Assembly: GCA_963718745.1 (NCBI GenBank)
Contig: OY970370.1
Coordinates: 1,547,566 to 1,611,565, forward strand
DNA: 64,000 nt
Source of the DNA: Candidatus Fermentibacterota bacterium
Lineage (GTDB): Bacteria; Fermentibacterota; Fermentibacteria; Fermentibacterales; Fermentibacteraceae
Direction of reading: 5' to 3'
The translations under genes and the position numbers were made by a program. Positions 16,264 to 57,416 of the stretch are shown here, piece by piece (position 1 is the stretch's first letter; every line of letters begins with the position of its first letter). The notes below the pieces were generated by a model. The model was not told the DNA's origin, ran no database searches, and saw only the letters and a program-made list of their open reading frames with translations.

Positions 16264-16667
16264 GCGCGTCCTCGGGCCGACCCCGTAGCACCTCGCCCCA
16301 CGCGTCAGCTGAAAAAGTACAGGGATGCGGGGTCCGCTCCGGCGGGCCCCGCATCCATCTGTGAAACGGTTGCTGGAAGCTCACCAGCCTGATCCATCGA
16401 GGTCTTCCGACCATCAATCCAGCCTGCTTGTCGCCAACTGCCCCCCGGGGCAACGCATTCCCCGCTGATCAAAGAGCGAGTATTCGATGGGAGCACCATG
16501 TCGGACGGACTCTGTGTCCCGAGTTGCTGGTTTCCTCCTGTCTGACTCCCCCGGATGTCTTCATAATCATGCTGGAAACCGATTCGGGCGCGTGGACGGC
16601 CAGGATGGTCATCCTGAGAAATGCGGCACCATGCACACGGTGCCCGAGTCCCCGGAGGGGAGGAACG

Positions 16668-18578
16668 ATGAGATACCTTCTGCTGCCGGTCATCTGCGCG
16701 CTGCCGTGCTTCTCCGCGGAGCTCCTGTTCCGCAGCCAGGAAGCAATGCCGGACGCCGAGATCCTCGCTTCGGATGCGAGCTCGGTTACCTTGTGCTTCA
16801 ACCTCCCCGCCCTCACCGGATCCGATGCTTTGGTCGACGGTTTCGGCACCGGCACCTGCCTGCGCGTGCCGGGCTGGGGAATGCTGGCCGAAGCGGGCTG
16901 CCCCGACCTGCCGGTGCTCAGGAAGCTCGTCATGGTCCCGGACATCGGGGGGGTGAGCCTCGAGGTGATGGAGGAGACCACCGCGAGCCTGGGTGTGTTC
17001 ACGATACCGCCATTCCAGCATCCACCCCTCAGATCCGGTGAGACTCAGCCGTTCGAGCAGGACCCGGCGATCTATGGTTCGGAAGGTCCTTTTCCTTCCG
17101 AGTGTGCACTGCTGGAAGGCGTTCACGTGCTGAGGGACCTCAGGGTTGCGACGGTCAGGTTCAATCCCGTGAGGTACGACCCACGGACGGGTGAGGTCAC
17201 TCTGGTGACTTCGGCCACTGTCAGGCTGACGTTCGGGGGATCAGGGGAGAACGAGTTGTCGCGAAACTTCACGGGCACCACCCCCGGTTTCCTCCCGGTG
17301 TACGAGGAGGTCCTGGGGTTCGAACCCTCGGGTCCCTTCCTCGACGGCTGCTACCTGTTCATCGGCACCGAGGAGAGCCTCGAAGCGATCGAGGCGCTGA
17401 TCGACTGGAAGAGACAGCGGGGCTACAGGGTGGAACTGGCACAGGTGCCGAACATGGGAACGACAGCCGAAGAGGTCGACGACTGGATCGAGCTTGCCTA
17501 CGCGATCTGGTCGTGCCCGCCCGAGTGGATCCTCATCGCAGGCGGCGAAGACCTCGTGCCGGTGCCGCTGTACGAGGGATTCGCATCCGACAACGTCTAC
17601 GGCGTCATCGGCACAGGGACCAGCGTGCCATCGATACATGTCGGGAGGATCACCGGGTCCATGGAGGACCTCCAGTACCAGGCCTGGAAGATCCGCAGCC
17701 ACGAGGCCGACCCGTACGAGCCGGCAGGCGTGAACTGGCTGCAGAGGACCGTGGTCATCGGCTCGAGCGACGGGCTGGATCCGCTGCACTCCTGGGAGCA
17801 TGCTCAGATCTTCATGCAGCACGGTTTGTCCGTGGATTACTACTGCGACAGCCCCGCGTACGGCGGGGCGCCTCCGGACAAGGCGGCCATCGCGGCGAAC
17901 ATCGACGAGGGAAGGACGATCGTAGACTACATCGGCCACGGGTGGAGCGAAGGCTGGGGCACCTCGGGGTTCTCCTCGACCGACGTGGCAGCCCTTTCGA
18001 ACGGCCGCATGCTCCCCTGGGTGAACTCGATAGCCTGCAGCAACGCGGAGTTCATGTACGGGTACTGCTTCGGAGAAGCCTGGATGACCGAGGGAGACAT
18101 GGTCGACCCCAGGGGCGGGCTCGGTTTCATGGGGGCGACGACGGGCAGCCCCTTCGGCCCGACGGATTCACTGGCGGAGTACACGTGGCGCGGCTACTTC
18201 GAACTCGATATCCATCACATGGGAGCGGCAGTCGACTACGGGAAGCTGAAGGTCGAGGAGTTCTACGGCGGCGGCGGCTGGGCAAACAACATGATGCACA
18301 TGGTGTTCGGATGCCCCGAGGTCGACGTCTATGGCGACACTTCCCCCATCCCCGTCCTGGCATCTGACCACAGCGGGTACATCTGGAGCGGACCGTGGCC
18401 GGTATACGTCACCTCCGAGGGCGATGGTCCCGTCGAAAACGCGATGGTGGGCGTGGTTCAGGGCGACGAACTGCTCGGAGCCGGATACACCGACAGCAAT
18501 GGCTTCCTGCAGCTGGACATCCCGGAACTGCCCTACGGATCTTCCGATGGAGGCCACCATCACTGTCACTGCTCATAA
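16668..18578 (+). CDS. peptidase C25 (gingipain-like) family protein, catalytic region
   Basis: Start MRYLLLPVICALPCFSA (signal) with GGAGGGGAGG RBS; conserved His/Cys regions (IDYIGHGWSEGWG, VNSIACSNAEF); reading frame ends abruptly at 18578. Confidence 0.8.
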   Translation: MRYLLLPVICALPCFSAELLFRSQEAMPDAEILASDASSVTLCFNLPALTGSDALVDGFGTGTCLRVPGWGMLAEAGCPDLPVLRKLVMVPDIGGVSLEVMEETTASLGVFTIPPFQHPPLRSGETQPFEQDPAIYGSEGPFPSECALLEGVHVLRDLRVATVRFNPVRYDPRTGEVTLVTSATVRLTFGGSGENELSRNFTGTTPGFLPVYEEVLGFEPSGPFLDGCYLFIGTEESLEAIEALIDWKRQRGYRVELAQVPNMGTTAEEVDDWIELAYAIWSCPPEWILIAGGEDLVPVPLYEGFASDNVYGVIGTGTSVPSIHVGRITGSMEDLQYQAWKIRSHEADPYEPAGVNWLQRTVVIGSSDGLDPLHSWEHAQIFMQHGLSVDYYCDSPAYGGAPPDKAAIAANIDEGRTIVDYIGHGWSEGWGTSGFSSTDVAALSNGRMLPWVNSIACSNAEFMYGYCFGEAWMTEGDMVDPRGGLGFMGATTGSPFGPTDSLAEYTWRGYFELDIHHMGAAVDYGKLKVEEFYGGGGWANNMMHMVFGCPEVDVYGDTSPIPVLASDHSGYIWSGPWPVYVTSEGDGPVENAMVGVVQGDELLGAGYTDSNGFLQLDIPELPYGSSDGGHHHCHCS

Positions 18579-18968: not shown

Positions 18969-19184
18969 TGTCCGACTTGTCCGGTATCAGGCCGGGGTCA
19001 CCTTAAGGACAGGTCTGCAGCAGTTACCAGCCTCCGTCCATCTTCTCTGCGGGCGGCATCCCTCACGCCAGATTCCTGAAAGCGTGCACTGAAGGCGATG
19101 GTGTCGATCTGATGGGCGGAGAGGCATCCACAGAAGGAGTCGGACCCGATCATCCGTTTGACGGTATCCGGAGCTCCGCCTGTC

Positions 19185-19565
19185 TCAGTCGCACACCCAC
19201 CAGCGACCGTCGATCAGAATCATCGCAATCTTGATGTTCGTGGCGAGGATCGAGGCTTCAGCGATATCGTCCCGCACTTCGACATAGACTTCGTAGTCGC
19301 CGGGCAGGTCGGGCATCCCGTCGATCTCCATCGCCTGCCTCAACTCGGCCCGCTGTTCGGGCAGGATCCAGAGCAGCGCAGCTTCCATGTCTTTCCGGTC
19401 TACGGCGTCATAGAAGATTTCGGCGACCATCACCGGATTCGATGTGTCGACCTCGGATTCGGTCGATTCCGCAAAGGAGTCCGTGCTCTCATTCCGGATG
19501 CTTCCGCAAGCCACAGAACCCATGATGAAGACGGAACATGCGAATGCTGCAGCTCTCGACGACAT
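19185..19565 (-). CDS. hypothetical lipoprotein
   Basis: Internal start MSSRAAAFACSVFIMGSVACGS (lipobox). Confidence 0.5.
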   Translation of the reverse strand: MSSRAAAFACSVFIMGSVACGSIRNESTDSFAESTESEVDTSNPVMVAEIFYDAVDRKDMEAALLWILPEQRAELRQAMEIDGMPDLPGDYEVYVEVRDDIAEASILATNIKIAMILIDGRWWVCD

Positions 19566-19816
19566 CGATGCCCCCGTTCGGAGATCCAGCCTTTCTGCGT
19601 TCCCGATATGGAATTCTAAGAAGCTCATCGCTCCTGGAACACCCTGATTGTCCTGTTCGTGAAATTGTCCCTCGAGTGGGCTTCCGGCTCCCGGATGCCC
19701 TGATCACTCAGCTGATCGCAGAAGCAGCAGCCGGAAGGGATCGGAACATCGCAGACATCCTGTATCTGCCTGATGCTGCACAAGCGTGCCTCGTCATCCT
19801 GCCGAAGACGTGTGTA

Positions 19817-20878
19817 TCAGTCGTGGTCGTGCCGGTGGTGGATGTCGGGATAGTGCTGGTGGAAATGAGTCAGCGGAGCATGGATGTGGGGATGGCTGTG
19901 CATCTCTCCGTCGGGTTCGGTGCCGTCGTGCTCATGGGCATGATGTTCGTCGTGGGCGTGAGAATGCTGATGGACGATCTCCTCGTGCGTGTGCTCGTGA
20001 CGGTGCTTTTCCCCCAGCTGCAGCCAGACTCCCAGACCCATCAGGAGCGCTGCCGGGAGCAGCAGGGGGCTTGCCTGCTCCCCTAGGAACAGCAATGAGG
20101 CAATTGCTCCTATGAAGGGCGCCGTCGAGAACAGGGCTCCGGTCCTTGCAGCACCCATGTTGCGCAGGGCCAGCACGAACAGCACCAGGCTGGCGCCATA
20201 GCCTATGAATCCCACCAGGCAGGACATGGCGACCATCGGCGCTCGCGGGACGGCCTGTCCGAGGGTCAGAGCGATCGAGACGTTCACCACGCCTGCGAAC
20301 AACCCCTTGATCCCGGCTATGAGCGCTGGATCCCCCGCCGAGATCCGGCGGGTGAGGTTGTTGTCCACGGCCCAGCAGAGGCAGGCGGCCACGATTGCCA
20401 TCCTTCCGGGCAGACCTGCATCAGTGCCACCCTCTGGTGAGATCGACAGGAAGACGGCTCCCGCGATTATTGCGAGGAGCCCGGATAAAACCTTCAGGCC
20501 GATGTTCTCCCGGAAGACCAGCCATGCCAGAAGGGCTGTCAGGATACCCTCGAGGTTCAGAAGCAGCGACGTGGTGGAGGCAGGGGTGCGCATGAGCCCC
20601 CACATGAGAAGCAGTGGCGCGAGAATTCCGCCCGACAGTACGGCGCCTGCGAGCCAGGGAAGATCAGTCCACGCGAGAGGGGTCGATTGTTTCCGACCCC
20701 TCCCGAACAGTCGACCGGCAATGATCAGCGAGCTGAGACCCAGCCCGGAGCCTAGGTATAGGAGTCCGGCCAGCATGAAGGGTGTGACATCGCCGAGAAG
20801 GGCTTTCGCCGCTGCGGTGGCCCCGCCGAAGAAAGCCGCAGCGACGAGGGCCGGAACCGGACCTTCAGCGATCCTCAA
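19817..20878 (-). CDS. EamA/DMT-family transporter with ~60-aa histidine-rich C-terminal tail
   Basis: About ten TM segments typical of EamA; tail HRHEHTHEEIVHQHSHAHDEHHAHEHDG...HSHPHIHAPLTHFHQHYPDIHHRHDHD. Confidence 0.8.
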   Translation of the reverse strand: MRIAEGPVPALVAAAFFGGATAAAKALLGDVTPFMLAGLLYLGSGLGLSSLIIAGRLFGRGRKQSTPLAWTDLPWLAGAVLSGGILAPLLLMWGLMRTPASTTSLLLNLEGILTALLAWLVFRENIGLKVLSGLLAIIAGAVFLSISPEGGTDAGLPGRMAIVAACLCWAVDNNLTRRISAGDPALIAGIKGLFAGVVNVSIALTLGQAVPRAPMVAMSCLVGFIGYGASLVLFVLALRNMGAARTGALFSTAPFIGAIASLLFLGEQASPLLLPAALLMGLGVWLQLGEKHRHEHTHEEIVHQHSHAHDEHHAHEHDGTEPDGEMHSHPHIHAPLTHFHQHYPDIHHRHDHD

Positions 20879-20884
20879 CTGAGG

Positions 20885-21505
20885 CTATCGCATCCCCCTG
20901 CAGCCGCCACCCGTGCGGCCCATACCGCGCATGCCGTCCATGCCGTTCATCCCGCCCATTCCGCAGCCACCGCGCATGTCGGCACCCATCTGATCGAGGT
21001 CGAGATCCTGCAGCTGCTCCAGCTGACCGGGCGTGAGGACCCCGTGTATGCTCACCAGGGCTTCCTCGTGGATGTTCCTGATCTCGTCGGACAGGTCGGC
21101 GGCCCGGCCTGTGAAGTCCTCGAGAGATGCCACCGAGAAGCTGCTGCTGGAGAAGAGATCGAGGAATGCCCTTGCAGGATCGGCCATCCCGGCCTCTTCG
21201 CGGGCTTCGGAGATCCTCTCCTCGAAACCGGCCATGAGATCATCGATCTCGGCCAACTGGGCATCCGAGAGATCGAGGTATCCCAGGAAGGGCATGATCA
21301 TCATCGGGCAGCCCTGCATCATGTTGCATGATCCCATGCCCATCATGCCGCCACACATGCCACCCATACCGCCCATACCAGACATCCCTGAGCCACGGTC
21401 CATGCCCATACCCATGCCGCCCATTCCGCCGCAGCCCTGTGCCCCGGCCGGGACTGCCAGAGCCAGAACAAGTGCGAGCACGAGCAACCATCTGAAGCGG
21501 TTCAT
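20885..21505 (-). CDS. periplasmic Spy/CpxP/ZraP-like protein with Met/Gly/Cys-rich termini
   Basis: Signal peptide; LTxxQ-type motifs (LDLSDAQLAEI, LTPGQLEQL); MGGMG/CGG repeats at both ends. Confidence 0.65.
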   Translation of the reverse strand: MNRFRWLLVLALVLALAVPAGAQGCGGMGGMGMGMDRGSGMSGMGGMGGMCGGMMGMGSCNMMQGCPMMIMPFLGYLDLSDAQLAEIDDLMAGFEERISEAREEAGMADPARAFLDLFSSSSFSVASLEDFTGRAADLSDEIRNIHEEALVSIHGVLTPGQLEQLQDLDLDQMGADMRGGCGMGGMNGMDGMRGMGRTGGGCRGMR

Positions 21506-21699
21506 CTCCGACTCCTCTCGAAAACCATACGACTATACCCTACCTTACAGGTATTCTATAGTGGAATCACATCTTGTGGTTCCCGACCATTTGAATCAGC
21601 AACGCAAGGTTCGTCCATATCCGCTGACAACCCGCAATCAGGGTCGCTGTATCAGTTGATGATGCCCCAGGGGGGAACAAAGCCCCCCTGGGACAAGTC

Positions 21700-21905
21700 G
21701 TGATAGCTATCTATGCATGGACGAGCCTGCGAGCACGGCGAAGGGGAGACACGGTCGTTGCCGGTTGGAACATCATTATAGCCCAGCTCATCAAGACGCG
21801 GAGTGGAGCAGGGTTGCGTAAGGGCAGCTCAGAATGCCTTCTACCCGCTCTGCTGCAAAGAAGCCTCTCCTGGCCGAGAGAAGGGTAGCCATGTCGGATT
21901 GGAGT
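21700..21905. repeat. mosaic intergenic repeat, copy D
   Basis: About 120 bp nearly identical to 25530..25640 and about 55 bp to 29545..29600; lies between the FG-GAP gene stop and the Met-rich gene; a 10-bp GC hairpin sits at 21666..21692. Confidence 0.6.
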
Positions 21906-21934
21906 ACCAGGAGGAAAGGTCCTCCCGCTCGATG

Positions 21935-23755
21935 CTACTCCACCACCACGACGCGTCTCGCGGTCTCGAACTCCCCGGCCTGCATCCTTACGAAGTAGAC
22001 GCCCGGGGGATGCTCGCCCAGTCCAACCTGCGAATAGCCGGGCTGGTATTCGATCGAACCCGTCGATTCCGCAACCCTGCCCGCGATGTCCAGAACGGTC
22101 AGAGTCACCATGGAAGGCTCGGGAATGCCGATCGTGACGAGCAGGGGCCCGGAGACGGGATTGGACACGAAGGGCATCAGCTCGAAACCGCCGGGCATCT
22201 CCGGCCCCTCCGTGCCGAGCGGGTTCCAGGAGACCGTTACGTCGAGCAGAGCGGGGCTGGCGCCGGGATCGTCCGTCGTCATCACGGACCTGTACTGGAA
22301 GTAGTTCGCTCCCTCAGGAAGCACGCCCGCGAGACTGCACGGGTCATCGAGAATGGCCGACCACGCCCCCATCTCGTCGGAATCGTCCGAAGCGCGCACC
22401 TGGAAGGAAATGTCGGTCTGGGAGGGAGAGTCTTCAGTCCATGTCAGACCTCCCCAGCCCGGATCGCCCTGCAGGTATAGGATGCTGGATTCCAGGACCG
22501 CCTCGTTCACATGGATGTCCCACCAGCGGAAGAAGTGCAGGTCCGGCTCGAAGCTGGTCCCCAGGATGTCCATCCAGCCGTCGCCGTCCACGTCACCCGG
22601 GATGATGCAGTCGGCAGTGTTGTACTCCCCGATGTCGCAGACCGTGTGCTCCTCCCAGTCCGTCCCCAGTCCGTCGGAGTTCTCGATCCAGATGTACTGT
22701 CCGCCAAGCCCCGTTGTGACCAGGATGTCGCTGTCTCCGTCCCGGTCGAGATCGCCGGACCCGAGGCCCCAGCAGCAATCGGAATAGGCTGCAACTACGT
22801 GCTTGGTCCAGTCCGAACCCGTGCCGCTCAGGTTCTCCCACCACGAGACGGCGTCCGAGTCAGTACCTGAACCGAGGACGTCGAGATCCCCGTCTCCGTC
22901 GAAATCGGCCGCATGGACGGAGAACGAGCTGTTGTAGCCGTCATCTATGGCGGCCATGGTCCAGGTCGTCCCGAGACCGTCGGTGTTCTCGAGCCAGAAC
23001 ACGCCGTACTCGGCTGAACCTGCGGCAATGATGTCCAGATCTCCGTCTCCGTCCAGATCGCCGGGATGCACACCGTGGTAGGAACTGCTGAGCCCCGTAT
23101 CGATCTCATGTTCGAGCCAGTCGGAGCCGTCCCCCTCGACGTTCTCCCACCAGTACCAGTACAGGCCGAAGACGTCTGCGCAGACGATGTCGATGTCTCC
23201 ATCCCCGTCGAAGTCCCCCGTGCACGGGGTCACTGGCATCTCTGGAGCGGCGCTGATCGAACAACCGATCCATAGAGTCCCCTGGCCGTCCACGTTCTCG
23301 AACCAGGAGACCAGGTCCTGGGCTGCGACGAAGTCGGTGTCGCCGTCGCCGTCGATGTCGCTCGCGCAGATGTATCCGCCGGTTGCAGCTGCTATAAAGT
23401 GAATCGTCCAGTCGGTGCCCGTGCCGTCGTTGTTCTCCCACCAGCAGACGGTGGAGGAGCTGCTCGCAACGACGTCCAGGTCCCCGTCGCCGTCCATGTC
23501 GGCAGCATCCAGGTATTCGGGCTCGAAGATGTCGTCGATGGTGTTCTCGTACTCTCCAGGGAGGATCCCGACCTGCCCGGCGGGAGACGACCACGACGCT
23601 CCGGCGCATTCGTAGAATTCTCCACCCCATGCCGTTACCGGCCCCTGAGTCCCGGGGCCGCCGGCCCAGTCGGTCTGGCTTTCGCTGTCGGCATGGCAGA
23701 CGGAAACTGTAATCAGAAGGGCTATGAGGAGGAAGAGTCGCTGCATCCGGACCAC
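21935..23755 (-). CDS. FG-GAP/VCBS repeat protein with T9SS C-terminal sorting domain
   Basis: Signal peptide; repeated DxDGDGDxD calcium-binding-like motifs; C-terminus TLTVLDIAGRVAE...PGVYFVRMQAGEFETARRVVVVE. Confidence 0.8.
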   Translation of the reverse strand: MVRMQRLFLLIALLITVSVCHADSESQTDWAGGPGTQGPVTAWGGEFYECAGASWSSPAGQVGILPGEYENTIDDIFEPEYLDAADMDGDGDLDVVASSSSTVCWWENNDGTGTDWTIHFIAAATGGYICASDIDGDGDTDFVAAQDLVSWFENVDGQGTLWIGCSISAAPEMPVTPCTGDFDGDGDIDIVCADVFGLYWYWWENVEGDGSDWLEHEIDTGLSSSYHGVHPGDLDGDGDLDIIAAGSAEYGVFWLENTDGLGTTWTMAAIDDGYNSSFSVHAADFDGDGDLDVLGSGTDSDAVSWWENLSGTGSDWTKHVVAAYSDCCWGLGSGDLDRDGDSDILVTTGLGGQYIWIENSDGLGTDWEEHTVCDIGEYNTADCIIPGDVDGDGWMDILGTSFEPDLHFFRWWDIHVNEAVLESSILYLQGDPGWGGLTWTEDSPSQTDISFQVRASDDSDEMGAWSAILDDPCSLAGVLPEGANYFQYRSVMTTDDPGASPALLDVTVSWNPLGTEGPEMPGGFELMPFVSNPVSGPLLVTIGIPEPSMVTLTVLDIAGRVAESTGSIEYQPGYSQVGLGEHPPGVYFVRMQAGEFETARRVVVVE

Positions 23756-24053
23756 CCCCGTTTAAATTTTCACTGCATATCTGATCTCGCACGACATCAG
23801 ACCTGCGTCAAGCCCAACTTCCAGATCGCTTTGACTTCAGGTCCCAGCTCTGGTCGAAGGTTTCGCAGCAGTTTCTTTCGCTAGGCGGAAGACAGGAGTC
23901 ATTCACCTTGAATCCTTTTCATGACCGAGCAAGCTCTGGTTACTGCGGTGCAGTCCTCTGGAGGCACCGACCCTCCCGATCTGCCGGAAACCTGTAAATG
24001 TCCTGCCCGGGAAGCATATCCATCGTTTTCTACGATCCGATGAAGGGTAGGCA

Positions 24054-24082
24054 TTGACTCTACGTACGGCATTGCGTACGAT
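24054..24082 (+). promoter_or_regulatory. sigma70-like promoter TTGACT-N17-TACGAT with CGTACG-N6-CGTACG operator palindromes
   Basis: About 25 nt upstream of the antitoxin start; paired short palindromes in a toxin-antitoxin promoter are the expected autoregulation architecture. Confidence 0.45.
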
Positions 24083-24105
24083 ACAGAAGATAGAAAGGGG
24101 AGCGT

Positions 24106-24348
24106 ATGTCAGCGTTGAGCGCCACTGATGCAAGAGCCCGGCTGTACCGCCTCATCGACGAGGCGGCCGAGACTCATGAACCGATCCTGATAACCGGGAA
24201 GCGGAGTAACGCCATTCTCCTCTCGGAGGAGGACTGGCGTTCGATCCAGGAAACCCTGTTCCTGCTCTCGGTCCCCGGCATGCGCGAGAGCATCGTCGAG
24301 GGCATGAAGACACCGGTCGAGAAGTGCAGCGAGAAGCCCGGCTGGTGA
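24106..24348 (+). CDS. yefM: type II antitoxin, Phd/YefM family
   Basis: 80 aa; MSALSATDARARLYRLIDEAAETHEPILITGKRSNAILLSEEDWRSIQETLFLLSVPGM matches YefM; AAAGGGGA RBS. Confidence 0.85.
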   Translation: MSALSATDARARLYRLIDEAAETHEPILITGKRSNAILLSEEDWRSIQETLFLLSVPGMRESIVEGMKTPVEKCSEKPGW

Positions 24349-24608
24349 CCTGGCGCCTGGTCTACACTGCGCAGGCCCGGAAGGACGCGAAGAAGATCCA
24401 GGCAGCCAGCCTCCGGGAAAAGACGGAAGCTCTCCTCGAACTGATCGCGAAGGATCCTTGCGCCGCCCCTCCTCCCTTCGAGAGGCTCCTCGGTGACCTG
24501 AAGGGCGCGATATCCCGCAGGATCAACATCCAGCACAGACTTGTCTACCAGGTTCTCGAAGCAGAGAAGACCATCAAGGTCCTCAGGATATGGACGCACT
24601 TCGAGTAG
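24324..24608 (+). CDS. yoeB: type II toxin, YoeB/Txe family
   Basis: RLVYTAQARKDAKKI...RRINIQHRLVYQV...IWTHFE matches YoeB; the likely start is the GTG at 24345 overlapping the antitoxin stop. Confidence 0.85.
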   Translation: MQREARLVTWRLVYTAQARKDAKKIQAASLREKTEALLELIAKDPCAAPPPFERLLGDLKGAISRRINIQHRLVYQVLEAEKTIKVLRIWTHFE

Positions 24609-24705
24609 ACAGAATCAGCCCTCTGGAAGCATGACCGCCATGCCTTCTTGCCTGCCTGGACCCTCTTCCGTATCGTCACTTCTGGCGTATGCGAGAGGGG
24701 GGCGT

Positions 24706-25182
24706 ATGCGGATCGTCGCCGAAGTTCTCGGGCTAGTCACGATCTTCACTTTGATGCTCTCAGGATGCGGCAGTTATGAGGACGAAACCGTCATCTTCAC
24801 CAAGGTCCTCCCGGCTGACGTTCAGCAGCTCATGGACAACGGGTATCTCGACAGCGGGGGTGCAAACCCCATCCTTTATCCTGTCGAGGAAATGTGGGAA
24901 GACTTCTACTTCGCAGAAACCCCCGAGATGCTGGACTCCCTGTTCCAGGAATATCCTCCAGTTCTGGACAGCCTCTTCCCGGAAGGCGGCTCACTTCTGA
25001 TCCTGGACCTCCACACAGAAATTGAGGATGAAGTTCTAGGCTACTCTATGGAAGCCAGTTCTGACACAGTGCGGATATGTGTTGAGATAAGATACCGAGA
25101 TGTCGGAAGCCCTTATCCAGGGATTCGCGAGTGGGTTTTCCCGATGGGAGTTGTTCTTGATCCGGAGACTCCCGCTGAGTAG
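24706..25182 (+). CDS. hypothetical lipoprotein
   Basis: Internal start MRIVAEVLGLVTIFTLMLSGCGS with GAGAGGGGGG RBS. Confidence 0.55.
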   Translation: MRIVAEVLGLVTIFTLMLSGCGSYEDETVIFTKVLPADVQQLMDNGYLDSGGANPILYPVEEMWEDFYFAETPEMLDSLFQEYPPVLDSLFPEGGSLLILDLHTEIEDEVLGYSMEASSDTVRICVEIRYRDVGSPYPGIREWVFPMGVVLDPETPAE

Positions 25183-25307
25183 ACTGACGCCGACCAGCTG
25201 ACCTCGCGGACTTCCACACGGATGCAGTAGACGATCTCGCCTAAACCCCGTAATCTCAAAAGGCTTCAACATCCTGGGGCTGCTCAACAACCCGAAGAAG
25301 ACGGATG

Positions 25308-25640
25308 TGTCCCACGGGGATACGCAGCCCCCCGTGGACCGGTCGCGCGAACGAATCGAGCTGAATGGCAGTTGTGAGCGCGACAAGGCATCATCACGGT
25401 CGTTTCACGGAAACGACGATGCTGTGCTTATCTACTGGTGGTGATGATGCCTTTGCCACTTCCCGCAGGGAAGTGGCGGTCCTGGTCCTTTGTGGATGGA
25501 ACACCCTGATGGCCCAACTCGTGAAGATTGCGGCGTGGAGCAGAGTTTCGTAAGGTCTGCTCAGAATGTCCTCTACCCGCTCTGCTGCAAATAAGCCTCT
25601 CCTGGCCGGAGAAGTAATAGCCATGTCGGATTGGAGAATG
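25308..25640. repeat. mosaic intergenic repeat, copy A (includes a hairpin variant of the tRNA-Glu 3'-end motif)
   Basis: About 270 bp aligns with 27396..27650 at high identity; its 3' part matches copy D. Confidence 0.65.
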
Positions 25641-25794
25641 GCCTGAACAATGTGGATGGGATTGCAGGCCAGCTCGATTCCGGATGATCAATTCCCTCGA
25701 TGTTGACGACACTCACATCTGAACTTGCTGGCATGTCCTAGTCTAGGCATAGATAGAATACACTCGGCTTCGGTAATGGGCTGGAGGTGGAACG

Positions 25795-27285
25795 GTGTTG
25801 GCGCTCCTTTTACTTGCAGCGACCGCGAGTCCACCCGAGATCCTGTGGGCTGCCTGGTCCCCTGGCGGGATAGTTGATGTAGAGTGCGCCGGCTTCGTGA
25901 ATGGCGACTCCACCGAAGATGTCTTTGCCGCGTCAGATGAAGCCTCCGGGCATGGCATCATGTGCCTGGACGGGGCTACAGGTGGAATCATCTGGCTCAA
26001 CGACTCTCTTCCGGGAATCACTGGCACGGGTTGCCTCCGAGCTATCAGAGACGTGAATCTTGACGGAGTTCATGATGTTGCGGCAGGTTCATCGGCGAAT
26101 CCTGCGGTGGCTGTCTTCTCTGGAAGCACAGGTGAGATTCTGTGGAGCATTCCCCAGGAGTATCCGGTCTGTTGGATCGAGGCCGCCAATGGTCCTGGTC
26201 CCTCGGACGTCTACGTTCTTGTTAACCGACAGAACTCATACTGGACCAGTTGTGCCGCGCTTGTCGGTCAAACTGGAGCGCAGCAGTGGGCCACGCCTTA
26301 CGTGGCAACCACAGATCTCTGGCTAAGAGCGACTGAAGGTGACATCAACGGTACAGGCTGGTCCGAGTTCGGTATATCGGTTGACAGGGGATCTGTCAGC
26401 GGCGGATGGGCCGACGTGATGGACGGTTCGAATGGCGGCCTGATCCATCGAGAAAACACGATGTATTTCGGATCCATGGACGTATGCGACACGCCCATGC
26501 CGTTGATGGTCATGTCTCACTTCGGAACCTACCCCGTGACATGGGCGTACTCCTTTGTCTCGGGCACTGTAGTATGGCAGAGTTACAACCCGGATCTGGG
26601 TGGCGCCCAGCTCCAGATTCTCCCGAGCATCACCCAGCCTGCCACCCCGGATCGTGAGATCCTCGGATTCGGAAGCAGCAGCCACCTGGTCCTGTTCAGT
26701 TGTGATGAGGAATACACTGACGTTTTTGTTGAATACGTCTTTCCGAGCGCGATCAGGGCGGTTGACTATTTCTGTGAGGCTGCAACGTGGAGGGTTGCCT
26801 TGGTGACCTCGGCCAGATTCCATTGCCCCCTGCTGGACCTTTGGTCCCCACCTTCCACAGAGCCTTCAATCGCCTTGCCTAACGCGGATGCACAGGATCT
26901 TTGCCTGATCGAGTCGGTTCTCTCTCCGACACCACTCGTAGCTGTCGCAATGAAAGCAGCCGGACCAGGTGTCTGCGCGATTCGCACCACATGGCCCGAA
27001 GGCATCGAGGAGGAAAGCACAGCCCCCAATCTGGTCTTGAGCTCCTGTTCGCCTAGTCCTGGGACGGGGGAGTTCAGTCTCACCTGGTCATCCGGCATGG
27101 GGCCGACGGAGATCGGAGTCTATGAGGAATCCGGCAGACTCTGCCTCGATTGCGACCTGGGTCTGATGCCCGAAGGCGAACACTCCACACAGCTCGACCT
27201 GCAGGAAATGCCCTCCGGCTGCTATGTGGTCGTAGTCTCCTGTGGCACAGAGCGGGCCTCCACGAAGCTGGTTGTGCTCAGGTAG
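25795..27285 (+). CDS. secreted repeat protein with T9SS-like C-terminal domain
   Basis: GTG start with GGAGGTGG RBS; signal MLALLLLAATASPP; C-terminus GVYEESGRLCLDCDLG...PSGCYVVVVSCGTERASTKLVVLR. Confidence 0.7.
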   Translation: MLALLLLAATASPPEILWAAWSPGGIVDVECAGFVNGDSTEDVFAASDEASGHGIMCLDGATGGIIWLNDSLPGITGTGCLRAIRDVNLDGVHDVAAGSSANPAVAVFSGSTGEILWSIPQEYPVCWIEAANGPGPSDVYVLVNRQNSYWTSCAALVGQTGAQQWATPYVATTDLWLRATEGDINGTGWSEFGISVDRGSVSGGWADVMDGSNGGLIHRENTMYFGSMDVCDTPMPLMVMSHFGTYPVTWAYSFVSGTVVWQSYNPDLGGAQLQILPSITQPATPDREILGFGSSSHLVLFSCDEEYTDVFVEYVFPSAIRAVDYFCEAATWRVALVTSARFHCPLLDLWSPPSTEPSIALPNADAQDLCLIESVLSPTPLVAVAMKAAGPGVCAIRTTWPEGIEEESTAPNLVLSSCSPSPGTGEFSLTWSSGMGPTEIGVYEESGRLCLDCDLGLMPEGEHSTQLDLQEMPSGCYVVVVSCGTERASTKLVVLR

Positions 27286-27375
27286 GAGAGCCTCCGAAGC
27301 TGCTTCCCGATTCCGTGCTGTAGTGCGTCTGGCTGTCTGTATTAGCGCAAAATATTGCTGTATAACTGATTATAT

Positions 27376-27660
27376 GGTGGCGGTCCCACGGGGCAACGCA
27401 GTCCCCCGTGGACCGGTCGCGCGAACGATTCGAGATGGATAGCCGTTGTGAGCGCGACAAGGCATCATCACGTCGTTTCTCTGGGAACGACGATGCTGTG
27501 CTTATCTACTGGTGGTGATGATGCCTTTGCCACTTCCCGCAGGGAAGTGGCGGGCCTGGTCCTTCGTGGATGGAACACCCTGATGGCCCAGCTCATCAAG
27601 ATCGCAGCCTGGAGCGAGGTTTCGTGAGGGGCAGCTCAGGATGGTGTTATCAGCTCCAAT
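27376..27660. repeat. mosaic intergenic repeat, copy B (starts with a duplicate of the tRNA-Glu 3' terminus)
   Basis: TGGCGGTCCCACGGGG (revcomp = the last 16 nt of tRNA-Glu) followed by the CAACGCAGT-loop hairpin and about 250 bp shared with copy A. Confidence 0.65.
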
Positions 27661-27845
27661 TGGCCATCGATCCTCTACAGGATGGAGAAGTAGTAGCCAG
27701 AGGGGATTGGACCACCACGGTATCTTGCCATTGTTGTGTCTGGTCGACTACAGATCGCTGCCGTCAACCAACCGAGCTAGCTGGTTAGGATACTGGAGCT
27801 CCATGCCCCAGTTCTGAAGACCTTCCTAATGGAACAGCCAACCCA

Positions 27846-28931
27846 CTACTGCAGCTCGAAAATGTAGACCCGGGGCCACGAGCTGGCGAAAGGATTCCAG
27901 GCAAGAATCCCGCGATCTGTGATGCGGAAGATCATCAGCTCGTCGCCGGGGAGGCCACTGACAGCGGAGGTGAACTCCAGCGTGCCATCCGACCTATACA
28001 CGTCGAACTCAGGGTGGAAATAGGAACTGTGGTGCACCCAGACCCTTCCCAGGGAATCCTGGACCTGGATCCCGATCACACCCAGCTCCCTTGGATCAGG
28101 GCGCCAGGCCCCGCCCATGTTGTCACGGTACCGGCGCCAGAGGAGTTCCTCCTCTACTTCCAGAGAATCGCGGAAACCTGGTTCCCGGGGATTTTGAAGA
28201 GTATCCAGGGGGGTACCGTCCTGCGCTAAAACTAGGACACGATTGTTGACGCCAGAGAGGGCCACATATATGTGCCCGTCACTATCTGTAGTTACTGCAG
28301 GCTGTCCGGCATAAAGCTCGTAGAGATCCTCGGGATTGATGCTGATCTGCTGAAGTGAGCTAAAGGTAGTGGTTATCTCTCCGGTGTCGATGCTCCACCG
28401 GGACAAGTCCATAGAAAGCGTGAGATCGCCATTCTGATCCGCAGTGAGATTCCCGGCCCAGCCGAGAGCGGAGCTGTCTGGAAGGATACTCAGCTGATCG
28501 ATGACCGAATTTCCGGGGAGTGTGACGGAACGCACCGTTGCCAAATCAGCTCGGTAGTACACAAATCGTCGAAGGTAGTATTCGTATAGGACGAAGCCTT
28601 CGCCGAATGGCGTTATCCCACCGATGTGATTGTATTCCAAAGGGCCATTGCCCAGATTCTTGACCCGGCTGATGCAGAGACCATCCGGAGAAAACAGACG
28701 CAGATCCTGATACGCCCCGTCCGCAACCAGTATGTTTCCGTCCGGTATGAAGAATGCCCCAGCGACTTTGCCCAGTAAAAGGTTGCTATCTCCGATTTCA
28801 ACTCCGATGGAATCGACAACTCGCAGTTCTCTGTATGTGATCGGATCATCGGTTGCTGGTGTGGGTCCTTTGCAGGCGATAGCCATAAGGATCAATGGCC
28901 CGCCTGAAACAAGGAAATATCCACTTCTCAT
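27846..28931 (-). CDS. hypothetical lipoprotein, beta-propeller-like
   Basis: Start MRSGYFLVSGGPLILMAIACKG (lipobox) with GGAGG RBS; repetitive beta-rich sequence. Confidence 0.65.
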   Translation of the reverse strand: MRSGYFLVSGGPLILMAIACKGPTPATDDPITYRELRVVDSIGVEIGDSNLLLGKVAGAFFIPDGNILVADGAYQDLRLFSPDGLCISRVKNLGNGPLEYNHIGGITPFGEGFVLYEYYLRRFVYYRADLATVRSVTLPGNSVIDQLSILPDSSALGWAGNLTADQNGDLTLSMDLSRWSIDTGEITTTFSSLQQISINPEDLYELYAGQPAVTTDSDGHIYVALSGVNNRVLVLAQDGTPLDTLQNPREPGFRDSLEVEEELLWRRYRDNMGGAWRPDPRELGVIGIQVQDSLGRVWVHHSSYFHPEFDVYRSDGTLEFTSAVSGLPGDELMIFRITDRGILAWNPFASSWPRVYIFELQ

Positions 28932-29149
28932 CCCGCTAATCACCTCCAGTCTGCAATATCATCAGTTTCGCAGCTCTGCCTGTCTAGTTACAGGGATCGA
29001 AGTCCAATCCGGGGAAGGTCAGCATTCCGAGCTTCAGAACCCGGGGACCGTTAATGCGATCCTTCAAGACAAGGACGAGCTGCTTGCACGACCAGGCATC
29101 GTCATGGTCGTTTTAGGAAACGACGGCTCTGAGCTTGTAACCAGTTGGT

Positions 29150-29650
29150 GATGATGCCTTTGCCACTTCCCATGGGGAGGACGCTCAGGCCCTCTCGCGG
29201 CTCGTCTCTTCAGTTTCGCAAGGCGAAACTGATACTTAGCAGAACACTCCAGTTCCGCGAAGCGAAAATGGTACGTAGCGCAACAGCATGGTTCCCGAAG
29301 GGAACCTGCGAGTGCGCGTGTCTGTGTTACCAGGGAACCTGCAAGTGTGCGTGAATGTCGTTGAAGGCTTTACCGCTCTCGCAGGTCCGCTTCGCGGACC
29401 GTGCTGCCGCTAAACTCATCCCTCTTCGCGGGATTCGAGACCTGTCGGGCCAGGTCATTCCCGCAGACGCGGGAATGACCGTGGCGGTCCCACGGGGCAA
29501 CGCAGTCCCCCGTGGACCTGCCGTGAGAGCTTCGTGCGAATACTGTGAGCCTGCGAGCACGGCGCAGGGACGACACGGTTGTTGCCGGAGGGAACGACCA
29601 TTCAACCGTTATGTCTTCGAGGTGTCGTCACTGCTGCCACTTGCCGGAGG
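29150..29650. repeat. mosaic hairpin-rich repeat block, copy C, directly downstream of tRNA-Glu
   Basis: Contains a second duplicate of the tRNA-Glu 3' end (~29482..29497), the hairpin GGTCATTCCCGC-AGAC-GCGGGAATGACC, and units shared with copies D and E. Confidence 0.65.
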
Positions 29651-29654
29651 CAAG

Positions 29655-29730
29655 TGGCGGTCCCACGGGGAATCGAACCCCGGTTTGATGGCTGAGAACC
29701 ACCCGTCCTAGACCTCTAGACGATGGGACC
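29655..29730 (-). tRNA. tRNA-Glu (anticodon CUC)
   Basis: Revcomp GGTCCCATCGTCTAGAGGTCTAGGACGGGTGGTTCTCAGCCATCAAACCGGGGTTCGATTCCCCGTGGGACCGCCA; cloverleaf with TTCTCAG anticodon loop; CCA encoded. Confidence 0.9.
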
Positions 29731-43196: not shown

Positions 43197-43379
43197 AACG
43201 GTCGGTAAAATATTGATGGGCAGAGAGATGAGAGAAAAACAGATCTGGCTGCGTCTCTCCGCTCGAACTGCCATATAACTAACCGTACTCCGGGTCTGCT
43301 GCAAGGTCGAACAAGGCCCATTCCTGGTTTCAGATCCCTCATTCCGGCTGAGCCGGAATGAGCAGGTAGCACATCAGCA

Positions 43380-43860
43380 TGGTTCAAAAAGGAAGGACGC
43401 TCGGGCCCTCTCGCGGTTCGCCACTCCAGTTCCGCGAGGCGGAACTGGTAGGTAGCACGACAGCATGGTTCCCGGAGGGAACCTGCGAAAGTGCGTGCAA
43501 GTCGTTATAGAGGTCGCTCGGAGCCCTCTCGCGGCTCGCCTCTTCCGGCTGATGCTCTGTGAGCTGGCGAGCCACTGACGGGCCAGGTCGTTCCTGCGCT
43601 TGCAGGAACGACCGATGCGAGTGTGCGTGCATGTGTTATAGAGGTTCGCTCGGGCCCTTTCGCGGCTCGCCTCTCCGGAATGTTCTTGATCTGGCGAGCC
43701 ACTGACGGGCCATGTCATTCCCGCGGACGCGGAGTTGATGGAAGCCCTGCGGGCTCGTTTGAGGAAGATCGCCCGGGTCCTCTCGTTATCCGCCAGACGT
43801 CTTGAACAACGGATGGCGGATAACTGTCGGACCTGGTCATTCCTGCCCGTGCAGGAATGA
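43380..43860. repeat. mosaic hairpin-rich repeat block, copy E, directly downstream of tRNA-Ser
   Basis: Tandem ~130-bp units sharing blocks with copy C; perfect hairpin GGTCATTCCTGC-CCGT-GCAGGAATGACC abutting the tRNA-Ser 3' end, plus variants with compensatory stem changes. Confidence 0.65.
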
Positions 43861-43863
43861 CCG

Positions 43864-43956
43864 TGGCGGAGAGGGAGGGATTCGAACCCTCGGATAGGTG
43901 ATAAGCCCATCAACCGCTTAGCAGGCGGTTGCCTTCAGCCTCTCGGCCACCTCTCC
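43864..43956 (-). tRNA. tRNA-Ser (anticodon GCU)
   Basis: Revcomp GGAGAGGTGGCCGAGAGGCTGAAGGCAACCGCCTGCTAAGCGGTT...GAGGGTTCGAATCCCTCCCTCTCCGCCA with long variable arm; CCA encoded. Confidence 0.9.
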
Positions 43957-56987: not shown

Positions 56988-57416
56988 TCAGTCCGGCAGG
57001 ATGTCGCTGAAGAAGACTACGTAGGCGGCTATCCTCACCAGCATCTGCTCGTCGGAGCCGTCGGTGTACAGCAGCGTGCTGAAGCTGCGGTCCTCGACGG
57101 TCCCGTCGCTCGATATCGTGATCAGGCAGCTGAAGGACGTGTCAGTCAGCCTTCCGTCATCCTCGAGGTGGTACAGGGTGTTGAAGCTCGCCCCCTCGAT
57201 CCGGCCGTCCCGGATGTAGCCGAGCGTGCGGAAGGACGAGTCCTCGACCCTGGAGTCGTCGCGGATGTACCCCAGCGTGCTGAAGGAGGAATCCTCGATG
57301 CGGCCGTCTTCCCTTATGTAAGCGAGTGTGGAGAAGCTGTCGTCCTCGAGGCGGAGATCACCGGCGGATGCGGAGGTGACCGTCATCATGATAGCAAAAA
57401 ACAGCAGGTTCCTCAT
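56988..57416 (-). CDS. secreted tandem-repeat protein (six ~17-aa SFSTLGYIRxDGRxEDS units)
   Basis: Signal peptide MRNLLFFAIMMTVTSASA; repeats visible directly in the translation. Confidence 0.55.
   Translation of the reverse strand: MRNLLFFAIMMTVTSASAGDLRLEDDSFSTLAYIREDGRIEDSSFSTLGYIRDDSRVEDSSFRTLGYIRDGRIEGASFNTLYHLEDDGRLTDTSFSCLITISSDGTVEDRSFSTLLYTDGSDEQMLVRIAAYVVFFSDILPD

Follow-up and report, generated by a model that had tools for sequence, protein, structure and literature searches.

In a 64,000-nucleotide stretch of DNA from a Candidatus Fermentibacterota bacterium (hereafter the window), the tRNA-Ser(GCU) gene is followed by non-coding, modular tandem units built from a perfect hairpin and a composite hairpin, and the same core unit, with unrelated stem sequences, is found in the tRNA-Ser trailer of three other Fermentibacteraceae lineages. 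We tentatively read this unit as a structured RNA module of the tRNA 3' trailer that multiplies by tandem and segmental duplication, a reading that we regard as plausible, if not yet probable. The evidence is found in the layout of the units, in the way their stems vary and in their position in the related lineages.

Hairpins and units of the window

On the tRNA strand, the core unit is composed of the ...CCGCCA end of the tRNA, 0-4 nt, a perfect 10-12 bp hairpin called hp1 (H1 in the original prediction) and then a composite hairpin. The latter begins with P1, a closing helix of 3-5 bp, continues with an internal loop of 4x4 nt (5'-GNCA / 5'-GRNA, where the second side is mostly GAGA) and is completed by P2, a helix of 8-11 bp. 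Conservation is seen in this loop, which has G.A/A.G as closing pairs, and in the asymmetric unpaired linkers. Block B, which fills the tRNA-Ser trailer, contains about three units of ~127 nt in tandem as well as rearranged units with H2 and H3 hairpins, while the shorter block A lies in the neighborhood of tRNA-Glu(CUC) (Table 1). Both blocks start on the tRNA strand one base after a ...CCGCCA tRNA or tRNA-like 3' end, with H1 next to CCGCCAC as the proximal end, and both end distally in H2 and ~31 nt that terminate in GAGCGTCCT. All units, including their asymmetric linkers, have one orientation and are direct tandem copies. A BLAST search of the remaining ~62 kb of the window yielded no further copies, and covariance-model matches with E<0.5 were confined to 43.33-43.87, 29.19-29.66, 25.40-25.48 and 27.50-27.55 kb.

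Table 1. Features of the two repeat regions, in positions of the window
Feature	Position	Strand	Remarks
Promoter of tRNA-Ser, sigma-70-like	43997-43969		
tRNA-Ser(GCU)	43864..43956	-	CCA end one base from H1b
Block B	43338..43862	-	whole repeat-filled tRNA-Ser 3' trailer; units U1, U2, U3, rearranged U4, partial U5
H1b (hp1 of U1)	43835..43862	-	GGTCATTCCTGC-N4-GCAGGAATGACC
U1 composite hairpin	43776..43833	-	P1 GGTCC/GGACC, internal loop GACA/GAGA, P2 GTTATCCGCCA/TGGCGGATAAC
U2	43653..43740	-	composite hairpin intact (loop GTCA/GAAA); hp1 (H1d, 43713-43740) broken
Tandem repeat, ~127 nt	43484-43725		inside block B
H1c (hp1 of U3)	43586..43613	-	GGTCGTTCCTGC-N4-GCAGGAACGACC
U3 composite hairpin	43522..43584	-	P1 GGCCC/GGGCT, loop GTCA/GAGA, P2 GTGGCTCGCC/GGCGAGCCGC
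GGTTCCC-GGA-GGGAACC hairpin	43468..43484	-	forms the core of an extended hairpin with an outer stem that covaries with the block A copy
H2c	43426..43448	-	CCAGTTCCGC-N3-GCGGAACTGG, in rearranged U4
M1 module	43394..43425	-	GGACGCTCGGGCCCTCTCGCGGTTCGCC; distal end common to both blocks
H3	43338..43362	-	CTCATTCCGGC-TGA-GCCGGAATGAG; at the H2 position of the partial distal unit
tRNA-Glu(CUC)	29655..29730	-	
Hairpin built partly from tRNA-Glu's own GCCA	29636-29658		GCCACTTGCC/GGCAAGTGGC
Unit Y	29481..29654	-	separate repeat family; tRNA-like minihelix (29483-29522) and GCCAC at its end
Block A	29178..29480	-	shorter copy of block B's modular repeat; modules 85-90% identical
H1a	29453..29480	-	GGTCATTCCCGC-N4-GCGGGAATGACC; follows a 17-nt tRNA-Glu 3'-end copy at a distance of one base
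GGTCCGC-TTC-GCGGACC hairpin	29384..29400	-	P2 equivalent, then TGCGAGAG on the tRNA strand; one compensated pair different from GGTTCGC/GCGAACC in L120
GGTTCCC-GAA-GGGAACC hairpin	29290..29306	-	paralogue of 43468-43484; half copy at 29333-29339
H2b	29249..29271	-	decaying copy; two uncompensated changes in one arm
H2a	29210..29232	-	TCAGTTTCGC-AAG-GCGAAACTGA; two compensated pairs different from H2c
M1 module	29178..29209	-	block A distal end

The original prediction described short hairpins with compensatory stem changes, and these were all found as quoted, i.e., the three H1 hairpins and the H2 hairpins (CAGTTTCGC/GCGAAACTG at 29211 and CAGTTCCGC/GCGGAACTG at 43427, with a decaying copy at 29250); H1d is a broken fourth H1 copy. 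The H1 pattern has three matches in the window (0 expected from 100 shuffles), and 10 of the window's 11 perfect hairpins with a stem of at least 10 bp lie inside the repeat regions. When the intact H1 copies are compared, the stems differ at 2-4 of 24 positions, always as a compensated pair, while divergence is far greater in the loops, at 2-4 of 4 positions, and in the left flanks, where 15-17 of 30 nt differ. All stem differences among the intact copies in the window are compensated. The chance that a second, independent stem substitution hits the partner with the complementary letter is ~1/69; H1 shows such a compensated second substitution in each of its two independent comparisons, and H2 shows it twice. 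H1, H2 and H3 have the core TTCC(N)GC in common, and about one quarter of all hairpin instances are decayed, e.g., H1d, H2b and the half copy at 29333.

The motifs at 43.34 and 16.44 kb, which the prediction considered related, have different identities. The former is H3 and thus part of block B, whereas the latter (GGGGCAACGCATTCCCC) is the tRNA-Glu-like minihelix of the X and Y units, a separate repeat family distinct from H1 and H2. Unit Y also occupies part of the interval 29150-29650 from which the hairpins were originally described. Its last 17 nt are identical to the tRNA-Glu 3' end, and 17-nt copies of this end are carried by X/Y units at 27377 and 29481. Block A is placed exactly between the end of unit Y (...GGGACCGCCAC) and the start of a partial unit X; the paralogous copies of this junction, at 27551 and 25477, are "empty", with CCGCCAC joined directly to TTCCCTGCGGGAAGTGGC, and one block has been duplicated to this second ...CCGCCAC junction. 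The segment 27545-27600 and its paralogues were considered as decayed tRNA-Glu 3' halves, but this lacks statistical support (alignment score 17; shuffles averaged 13.5 and reached up to 23).

Both blocks fold more stably than expected, with z-scores for the two strands of -8.7 and -7.6 (block B) and -7.1 and -7.4 (block A). The strands fold about equally well, and the folding energy does not pick the functional strand. The evidence on strand consists of the orientation of the units and one wobble pair: read on the tRNA-sense strand, the P2 helices of U2 and U3 have a U.G. The tRNA-Ser and tRNA-Glu genes each have their own sigma-70-like promoter. The only canonical terminator between these tRNAs and the next co-oriented gene is found at the distal end of block B, where the sole terminator-like hairpin with a T-run in the tRNA-Ser trailer is located (43410-43393). 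There is no T-run directly after H1, H2 or the composite hairpins; H1 and H2, which lack a U-tract, are therefore not canonical intrinsic terminators. The tRNA-Met gene in the window has an ordinary hairpin followed by a T-run.

The unit in related lineages

In the loci L120, L305/L306 and L307-L309 the order hp1 - CCGNCA - P2 - GAGAGGG directly follows tRNA-Ser, and the units are tandemly duplicated in every one of the four lineages, the window's included. The lineages that carry the unit are related uncultured bacteria of anaerobic digesters. The sequencing runs ERR12035931 and ERR15459707 each include a contig that codes for a protein identical to one of the window's ORFs, so these samples are likely to contain the source organism or a close relative. 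The contigs of the closest relatives end before the tRNA-side repeat region (L244 ~100 nt past gltX, while L245 starts ~105 nt before hydF). A descriptor search of the family loci (257 kb) gave 14 matches, each on the tRNA-sense strand, compared to one match in 2.09 Mb of control loci and none in shuffled sequences. In L307 the spacer from the tRNA to the next gene is only ~150 nt and is devoid of a mobile-element gene, such that the unit looks native to the trailer. As observed with tRNA-Glu in the window, the L307 tRNA-Ser is followed by a hairpin that takes in the tRNA's own GCCA.

The original prediction called for a structural alignment with a statistical test of covariation, and here pairing was found to be far above that of shuffled alignments. 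In nine units from four lineages 97.4% of the cells are paired, compared to 68.1% after shuffling and 35-48% when partners are slid, where the observed percentage is inflated by ascertainment since the units were partly found by requiring hairpins and the loops were trimmed. None of 500 shuffles reached the observed pairing, and 18 of the 21 stem pairs have changed on both sides. Outside the units, perfect hairpins of at least 9 bp are absent from the other ~185 kb of the relatives' loci that were scanned.

The prediction also held that covariation implies selection on structure. The part that stands is that pairing is maintained by compensated changes, for which the addition of the relatives makes a much stronger case; the implication of selection is less secure in DNA palindromes, since template-switch correction of quasi-palindromes can copy a change from arm to arm without selection (PMC7202029). 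The repeats might have no function, i.e., they could be neutral tandem and segmental duplicates of palindromes with arms kept complementary by replication template switching. As perfect palindromes with loops of 3-4 nt, H1 and H2 are substrates for such a process (PMC7202029); some copies are clearly decaying, and palindromes of the similar type GGTCATTCC.GC have arisen in numerous unrelated genomes. The absence of the unit from Ca. Fermentibacter daniensis proper, which has a MITE-like element in the trailer instead, also fits, and indicates that the unit is dispensable. However, template-switch correction cannot explain the persistence at one and the same place in four lineages of the two-hairpin layout, the linkers and the asymmetric loop despite replaced stems, nor the lack of comparable perfect hairpins in the rest of the relatives' loci. 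Furthermore, the conserved linkers and internal loop are RNA-like features, which, like the wobble pairs, palindrome-perfecting correction would tend to erase. We consider an absence of function improbable.

The structured-trailer reading implies that transcription from the tRNA promoter would continue into the unit, which would form a 3' external spacer and act in cis as an RNA. Its role may be to end or insulate the tRNA transcript or, alternatively, to define and protect the tRNA 3' end while it is processed, and stable spacer RNAs may be left behind. The stems would then be kept by selection on RNA pairing, while surplus tandem copies would decay. The family is a candidate for an undescribed RNA motif.

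Mobile elements and known repeat families

Among the options of the original prediction, a small or structured RNA fits best as judged from sequence, while the REP/BIME option is unsupported. BIMEs are composed of REPs in alternating orientation, and REPs are usually found in >100 copies per genome (PMC2817692, PMC3333891). The blocks do resemble REP, BIME and REPIN elements in being mosaics of short GC-rich extragenic palindromes with stems kept by compensated changes, but they occupy only two loci, both at tRNA or tRNA-like 3' ends, are in direct orientation and have no RAYT in the window. The GT[AG]G foot is absent before H1: the preceding bases read CCGCCAC or GCATC on the tRNA-sense strand, and GGGCCA or GGACCT on the other; GTAG is seen near H2 and H3 only, 1-4 nt 3' on the + strand. 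The prediction also proposed to test for an association with IS200/IS605-type transposases; no Y1 transposase, RAYT, TnpB or integrase could be detected in the window's 53 largest ORFs. Nor do the blocks represent ends of the relatives' IS elements; they show no similarity to the IS1595 and ISL3 copies found there. They have a hairpin at both the proximal and distal end, no terminal inverted repeats and no target-site duplication, and there is no tnpA or tnpB in the window.

A selfish element could still account for part of these observations. The blocks would then be non-autonomous, hairpin-ended elements (PATE/REP-like or BOX/MITE-like) that insert 3' of ...CCGCCAC without target duplication and are mobilized in trans by an HUH/Y1 transposase or other recombinase encoded elsewhere, with the hairpins as single-stranded-DNA recognition structures. 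The ends common to both blocks, the TTCC(N)GC core in H1, H2 and H3 and the interruption by block A of a junction that is empty elsewhere are in line with this model, as is the lack of inverted repeats and target duplication, which is also a property of IS200/IS605. In addition, the relatives' trailers of these tRNAs are insertion hot spots. A further copy is found inside the tRNA-Glu island of L120 (18119-18187) and block A follows a tRNA fragment; these copies without a working tRNA upstream are hints of mobility. Nevertheless, there are only two loci in 64 kb, for which one segmental duplication suffices, and no transposase or RAYT in the window. The four lineages carry the unit at the orthologous position, each with its own stems but with the internal loop conserved, which is better explained by vertical descent than by repeated insertion, and the compact L307 trailer displays no sign of insertion. 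A selfish origin is rather unlikely in our estimate.

Alternatively, the repeats could be recombination scars, i.e., piled-up att-type sites or arm remnants of serial integration and excision at tRNA ends (CIME-like), in which the dyads are recombinase binding sites. A low-GC island at 19-29.7 kb adjoins tRNA-Glu, the L117 recombinase element has an end that shows 85% identity to the segment 25243-25320, and the 17-nt tRNA-Glu end copies are direct. The sequence after tRNA-Glu ...GGGACCGCCA varies among Ca. F. daniensis strains, where the variants include large serine recombinase elements, and several assemblies break exactly at the tRNA-Ser 3' end. Against scars, no integrase or recombinase gene was detected in the window's island, no copy of the tRNA-Ser 3' end was found at the distal end of block B, and recognition of half-sites by a protein does not predict symmetric compensated changes. 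In viral contigs, either nothing or chance matches were found for M1, unit X, the minihelix, the GGTTCCC hairpin and H1 with its linker, PHROG and NCBIfam searches with the island's unknown ORFs gave nothing related to mobile elements, and the unit is conserved in the element-free L307 trailer. We consider this model improbable.

In a more speculative model, the blocks, and perhaps the X/Y units with their terminal tRNA-like minihelix and GCCA, could be gene-less cassettes that home to tRNA or tRNA-like 3'-CCA ends, inserting exactly after ...CCGCCAC without target duplication, where the covarying hairpins could be recognized in single-stranded nucleic acid. Its RNA-level counterpart would be the release of trailer RNAs by RNase P/Z at tRNA-like minihelices, as in eukaryotic MALAT1/mascRNA. 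This is doubtful; if true, the cassettes would represent a class of tRNA-end-targeting, structure-defined mobile elements without a known transposase.

Several other identities were considered and rejected. In neither block, on either strand, is there a RYYYAAC ... GTTRRRY pair 40-150 nt apart as expected for attC, and CRISPR-like arrays were dismissed. The internal loop, read directly, misfits the bulge-GA consensus of a K-turn. Operators of the downstream HTH_17-EIIA regulator are disfavored by stems that vary where the protein is conserved and by a different downstream gene in L307, and a CsrA-type GGA-loop sponge by the presence of GGA in only 2 of ~10 loops, on the antisense strand only. 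With Rfam 15, only three tRNAs in the window reach threshold; in E-value mode, what else matches within the blocks does not rise above chance (E above 2), and the stronger sub-threshold matches overlap tRNA genes.

Palindromes resembling H1 are widespread: with unrelated flanks, they are common in Betaproteobacteria and in many further phyla. A palindromic pattern search of genome contigs gave at least 115 loci in unrelated phyla, with none from the source genome and 2 of 115 within 500 nt of a tRNA among the matches listed. The GGTCATTCC.GC palindrome was rejected as a homologous family on account of unrelated flanks and the lack of a tRNA link. A metagenome search with a highly degenerate pattern listed 120 chance matches and no hairpin. 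One copy (29457-29476, ATTCCCGCAGACGCGGGAAT) fits the Neisseria dRS3/NIME pattern ATTCCC-N8-GGGAAT, but the other H1 copies do not, and on this comparison of sequences the dRS3 resemblance is convergence, not membership.

The structured-trailer reading has two precedents. One is E. coli tyrT, in which 178-bp repeats and the rtT RNA belong to the trailer, and the other is a spacer RNA, 3'ETS-leuZ. As in tyrT/rtT (RF00391, 178-bp repeats, Tpr peptide), repeated non-coding units lie directly 3' of a tRNA on the tRNA strand and would be co-transcribed as a trailer. Each tyrT unit opens with a copy of the tRNA 3' end; here, such copies are found in units X/Y and not in the H1/H2 modules. To our knowledge, covarying hairpins and a conserved internal loop are not described for the tyrT/rtT repeats. 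The rtT RNA is mentioned in 10.1101/2024.07.17.603846; there is no sequence or Rfam match to it in the blocks. The tRNA 3'ETS RNAs such as 3'ETS-leuZ, and tRNA terminator hairpins, also lie directly 3' of the encoded CCA and have stable stem-loops and conserved single-stranded stretches, but here no U-tract follows H1 or H2 and tandem amplification extends to ~0.5 kb. The pneumococcal BOX elements (boxA-boxB(n)-boxC) similarly harbor variable tandem modules between constant end modules and are highly structured as RNA. BOX elements are found in >100 copies at many intergenic sites, whereas the blocks are found only at tRNA or tRNA-like 3' ends and have no sequence similarity to BOX.

Implications for tRNA 3' ends in Fermentibacteria

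Compensated changes in DNA palindromes imply selection on RNA structure only when accompanied by cross-species, non-palindromic features, a caution that applies to similar repeats. The trailers show that tRNA 3' ends attract repeats, insertions and duplications, i.e., tandem units, a second ...CCGCCAC copy and minihelix repeats. The Fermentibacteria are the former candidate phylum Hyd24-12, which has no cultured member. If the structured-trailer reading is correct, these bacteria harbor an undescribed, strongly covarying structured element tied to tRNA 3' ends, and a new RNA motif candidate would be the perfect hairpin together with the second one after it, in which the GNCA/GAGA internal loop is conserved. 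The element would then offer a handle on the ending and processing of tRNA transcripts in bacteria with trailers that lack U-tract terminators.

Compensated hairpins in two tRNA-linked repeat blocks

The window contains three tRNA genes (see the table), and 10 of its 11 perfect hairpins with stems of at least 10 bp are found in the repeat regions by tRNA-Glu and tRNA-Ser. Every hairpin quoted in the original prediction is present. The short hairpin type H1 is located at 29453, 43586 and 43835 (three matches, where shuffled sequences give an expectation of 0), while a second type, H2, is found at 29211 and 43427 and, in decayed form, at 29250. Comparison of the intact H1 copies revealed stem differences at 2-4 of 24 positions, every time as a compensated pair, loop differences at 2-4 of 4 positions, and left flanks that differ at about half of 30. 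Two compensated pairs separate H2a from H2c, and direct reading of the outer stem around a GGTTCCC hairpin (GCACG/CGTGC vs GCGCA/TGCGC) yields two more. The claim that the stems change by paired substitutions that keep base-pairing is borne out. Decay is seen in H1d (43713), H2b (29249) and a half hairpin (29333).

Repeat finding, TRF and BLAST resolved two modular blocks, A and B, with common modules at 85-90% identity. Both open with H1, one base past ...CCGCCA-C on the tRNA strand, and close with H2 followed by a distal module, M1 (...GCGAGAGGGCC(Y)GAGCGTCC). Block B occupies the spacer from tRNA-Ser to the next co-oriented gene (HTH_17 + PTS-EIIA protein, start 43165) and contains about three repeats of a ~127-nt unit. 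The shorter Block A adjoins not tRNA-Glu itself but a 17-nt copy of its 3' end, which closes unit Y (29481-29654), a member of two separate repeat families, X and Y. Paralogous junctions at 27551 and 25477 are uninterrupted, CCGCCAC being followed directly by TTCCCTGCGGGAAGTGGC. These "empty" junctions, the ends common to both blocks and the lack of TIRs or TSDs would fit hairpin-ended, non-autonomous mobile DNA homing to ...CCGCCAC; we consider this unlikely, given just two loci in the window, no transposase, integrase or Y1/RAYT domain among its 53 largest ORFs, and the orthologous position of the repeated unit in four lineages.

Elsewhere in the window, a perfect AT-rich palindrome, GTTAATAAC-N7-GTTATTAAC (62436-62460), overlaps the start of a Fic/DOC ORF as called (62449-63648) and looks like an operator. 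A 51-nt tandem repeat in an ORF region (57206-57320; 2.3 copies, 76% matches) is probably a coding repeat.

Coordinates of tRNA genes, repeat blocks and associated elements in the window and in loci from other genomes (L-numbers)
Feature	Locus	Position	Strand
tRNA-Glu(CUC)	window	29655-29730	(-)
tRNA-Ser(GCU)	window	43864-43956	(-)
tRNA-Met	window	62077	(+)
Block A	window	29178-29480	(-)
Block B	window	43338-43862	(-)
Unit X/Y copies	window	29481-29654, 27377-27560, 25303-25486, 21658-21800	
Unit X/Y copies	other loci	L118 9058-9600; L119 11629-12041; L120 11727-11764	
…GAGCTGGGCCATCAGGGTGTTCCA… repeat	window	19635-19663, 21753-21796, 25484-25527, 27558-27601	
…GAGCTGGGCCATCAGGGTGTTCCA… repeat	L120	17299-17383, 18191-18244	
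Variable Ca. F. daniensis inserts after tRNA-Glu	other loci	L116 11637-15600; L117 11637-13200; L118 9791-12334	
Ca. F. daniensis MITE-like element	other loci	L246 212-412; L248 612-812; L250 7750-7960	
Palindrome loci from one Tannerellaceae MAG	e.g. L010, L013, L018, L028, L036, L037, L072, L073, L078, L113		

A recurrent unit behind tRNA-Ser

The tRNA-Ser loci of relatives were obtained via HydF homologues. In three further lineages the same architecture, i.e., a hairpin (hp1, here H1) and a composite hairpin with closing helix P1, a 4x4 internal loop and helix P2, is found directly 3' of tRNA-Ser on the same strand as the tRNA, and its stems are unrelated in sequence. In L120/121/122, hp1 is GCTCATTTCTGC-CCT-GCAGAAATGAGC, followed by TCCCGACA, GCAGGTTCG-CACG-CGAACCTGC and GAGAGGG, and a second copy of the unit lies 110 nt downstream. 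L305/306 harbor CTTCGTTTCGCA-TGC-TGCGAAACGAAG, then CACCCGGCA, GATCTTTCGC-CCT-GCGAAAGATC and GAGAGGGT; two tandem units are present, and in addition four 44-nt hairpin repeats. In L307-309 the hairpin incorporates the tRNA's own GCCA and is followed by GCCGGCA, GTTGTTTTCC-CTTC-GGAAAACAAC and GGTAGGC, an arrangement that fits in a ~150-nt spacer without a mobile-element gene. Tandem amplification of the unit was seen in every lineage. The consensus reads hp1, 1-4 nt, P1 (3-5 bp), G-N-C-A, P2 (8-11 bp), G-R-N-A and the second P1 arm; G.A pairs could close the internal loop at both ends. The other ~185 kb of scanned loci from relatives contain no further perfect hairpin of 9 bp or longer. The unit is lacking from Ca. 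F. daniensis proper, whose tRNA-Ser trailer instead contains a MITE-like, AT-rich element of ~190 bp bounded by terminal inverted repeats of ~30 bp (GGTGTCAGAGGAAAAAACGTCAAATAC...).

A mechanical descriptor requiring CGNCAG between a hairpin of at least 8 bp and a following one of at least 7 bp gave 14 matches in 257 kb of family loci, 14/14 on the tRNA-sense strand, one match in 2.09 Mb of unrelated loci and none in shuffles. When nine units were aligned free of gaps and their loops trimmed to three bases, 97.4% of cells paired vs 68.1% in shuffles (the observed value being reached by 0/500), a percentage inflated by ascertainment as several units were recognized through being hairpins, while the conserved linkers and fixed position were not selection criteria. 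With slid partners 35-48% of cells pair, and both sides changed in 18 of 21 pairs. Template-switch correction of palindromes (PMC7202029) could account for the perfect H1 and H2 stems if these were neutral; this explanation appears quite improbable, because it leaves unexplained the conserved asymmetric loop and linkers and the repeated occurrence of the unit at one position in different lineages. All matches of a covariance model built from the nine-unit alignment with E<0.5 in the window fall inside the repeat regions; in relatives the model matched only tRNA-Ser trailers and one copy in the L120 tRNA-Glu island (18119-18187). The unit displays conserved unpaired linkers and, on the tRNA-sense strand, a U.G wobble.

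The variable region at tRNA-Glu

Among named relatives, Candidatus Fermentibacter daniensis is the closest (GltX identity ~80%). A low-GC stretch (19000-29700; 0.54-0.60 vs ~0.65) adjoins tRNA-Glu and encodes an EamA transporter, an LTXXQ/metal-resistance-like protein, two T9SS-tail proteins (one with FG-GAP repeats, one beta-propeller-like) and several ORFs without a family match; no recombinase was found in it, and PHROGs and NCBIfam contributed no mobile-element leads for its ORFs. It is interspersed with four strongly structured X/Y copies of ~170-250 nt, each terminating in a tRNA-like minihelix, GGTCCACGGGGG-ACTGCGTTG-CCCCGTGGGACC-GCCA (a copy of acceptor and T-stem); the units at 27377 and 29481 share 17 identical nt with the tRNA-Glu 3' end. 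In Ca. F. daniensis contigs the same units are also found behind tRNA-Glu, and in L118 their T-arm-like hairpin is tandemly repeated with a period of ~51 nt. The arrangement is reminiscent of the tyrT/rtT repeats of E. coli and of minihelix substrates of RNase P. A further conserved repeat (…GAGCTGGGCCATCAGGGTGTTCCA…) lies ahead of the GCCAC hairpins in unit X; a suspected origin as a decayed tRNA-Glu 3' half has no statistical support, the alignment score falling within the shuffle range. The motif at 16440-16466 (CCCCCCGGGGCAACGCATTCCCCGCTG), predicted to be related to H1/H2, is instead a fragment of the X/Y minihelix (~22/28 positions match by eye); it lies close upstream of the gene for a C25 peptidase and possibly marks the outer limit of the variable region associated with tRNA-Glu.

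In other Ca. F. daniensis strains, large-serine-recombinase elements or IS1595 replace the sequence right after ...GGGACCGCCA of tRNA-Glu, which is thus an insertion hot spot. Among the variants are an IS1595 transposase together with a prophage-like region that has a large serine recombinase, another large serine recombinase immediately next to tRNA-Glu, and a T5orf172/ResIII gene; window positions 25243-25320 match the end of the L117 element at 85% identity. The hot spot lends some credit to the blocks being att-type scars of serial integration, which nevertheless seems a poor prospect: no recombinase was found in the window, a distal tRNA-Ser repeat is absent, and half-site recognition is at odds with symmetric, compensated changes.

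Known systems and a possible trailer element

The original prediction took the covariation to imply selection on structure, as in REP/BIME-like elements, small RNAs or recombination sites; the maintained pairing stands, while the REP/BIME and IS-end identities are unsupported. REPs are dispersed, and within BIMEs their orientation alternates (PMC2817692, PMC3333891); the hairpin units here are not dispersed in the window, are in direct orientation, lack the GT[AG]G foot in H1 and have no RAYT seen in the window. Identity as attC sites or as any Rfam family was likewise rejected, neither block matching an Rfam family, and Neisseria dRS3 is resembled by one H1 copy only. The palindrome GGTCATTCC[CG]GC-N4-GC[CG]GGAATGACC occurs at no fewer than 115 loci of very diverse phyla (at least L001-L115); because flanks are unrelated and tRNA linkage is absent, the likeness to H1 is, on this comparison, convergence. 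In a Tannerellaceae MAG and in Oscillospiraceae MAGs from rabbit gut, the palindrome is present in multi-copy families whose flanks are conserved; these appear to be unrelated REP-like families whose stems became alike by convergence.

The position and orientation of the unit are fixed at tRNA(-like) 3' ends, and across four lineages its arrangement is conserved with stems wholly turned over. tRNA-Glu and tRNA-Ser each have a sigma-70-like promoter, and, apart from the distal end of Block B, no canonical terminator was found ahead of the next gene. From this anatomy, together with the conserved linkers, the wobble and the tandem amplification, we infer that the unit would belong to the tRNA primary transcript and work in cis as RNA, through termination/insulation, through 3'-end definition/protection or by giving rise to stable spacer RNA, a reading that we regard as plausible though somewhat short of probable. 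It is weakened by equal folding of both strands, by the dispensability of the unit in Ca. F. daniensis, by copies not behind a working tRNA and by hairpins that lack a 3' U-tract, and so are not intrinsic terminators as usually defined, while tRNA-Met has a normal terminator.

Repeats of 178 bp and rtT RNA are found in the tyrT trailer of E. coli. This trailer and tRNA 3'ETS RNAs are the nearest functional counterparts of the putative trailer unit (rtT is mentioned in 10.1101/2024.07.17.603846). As judged from sequence, the unit is a candidate for a structured, lineage-restricted element in tRNA trailers.
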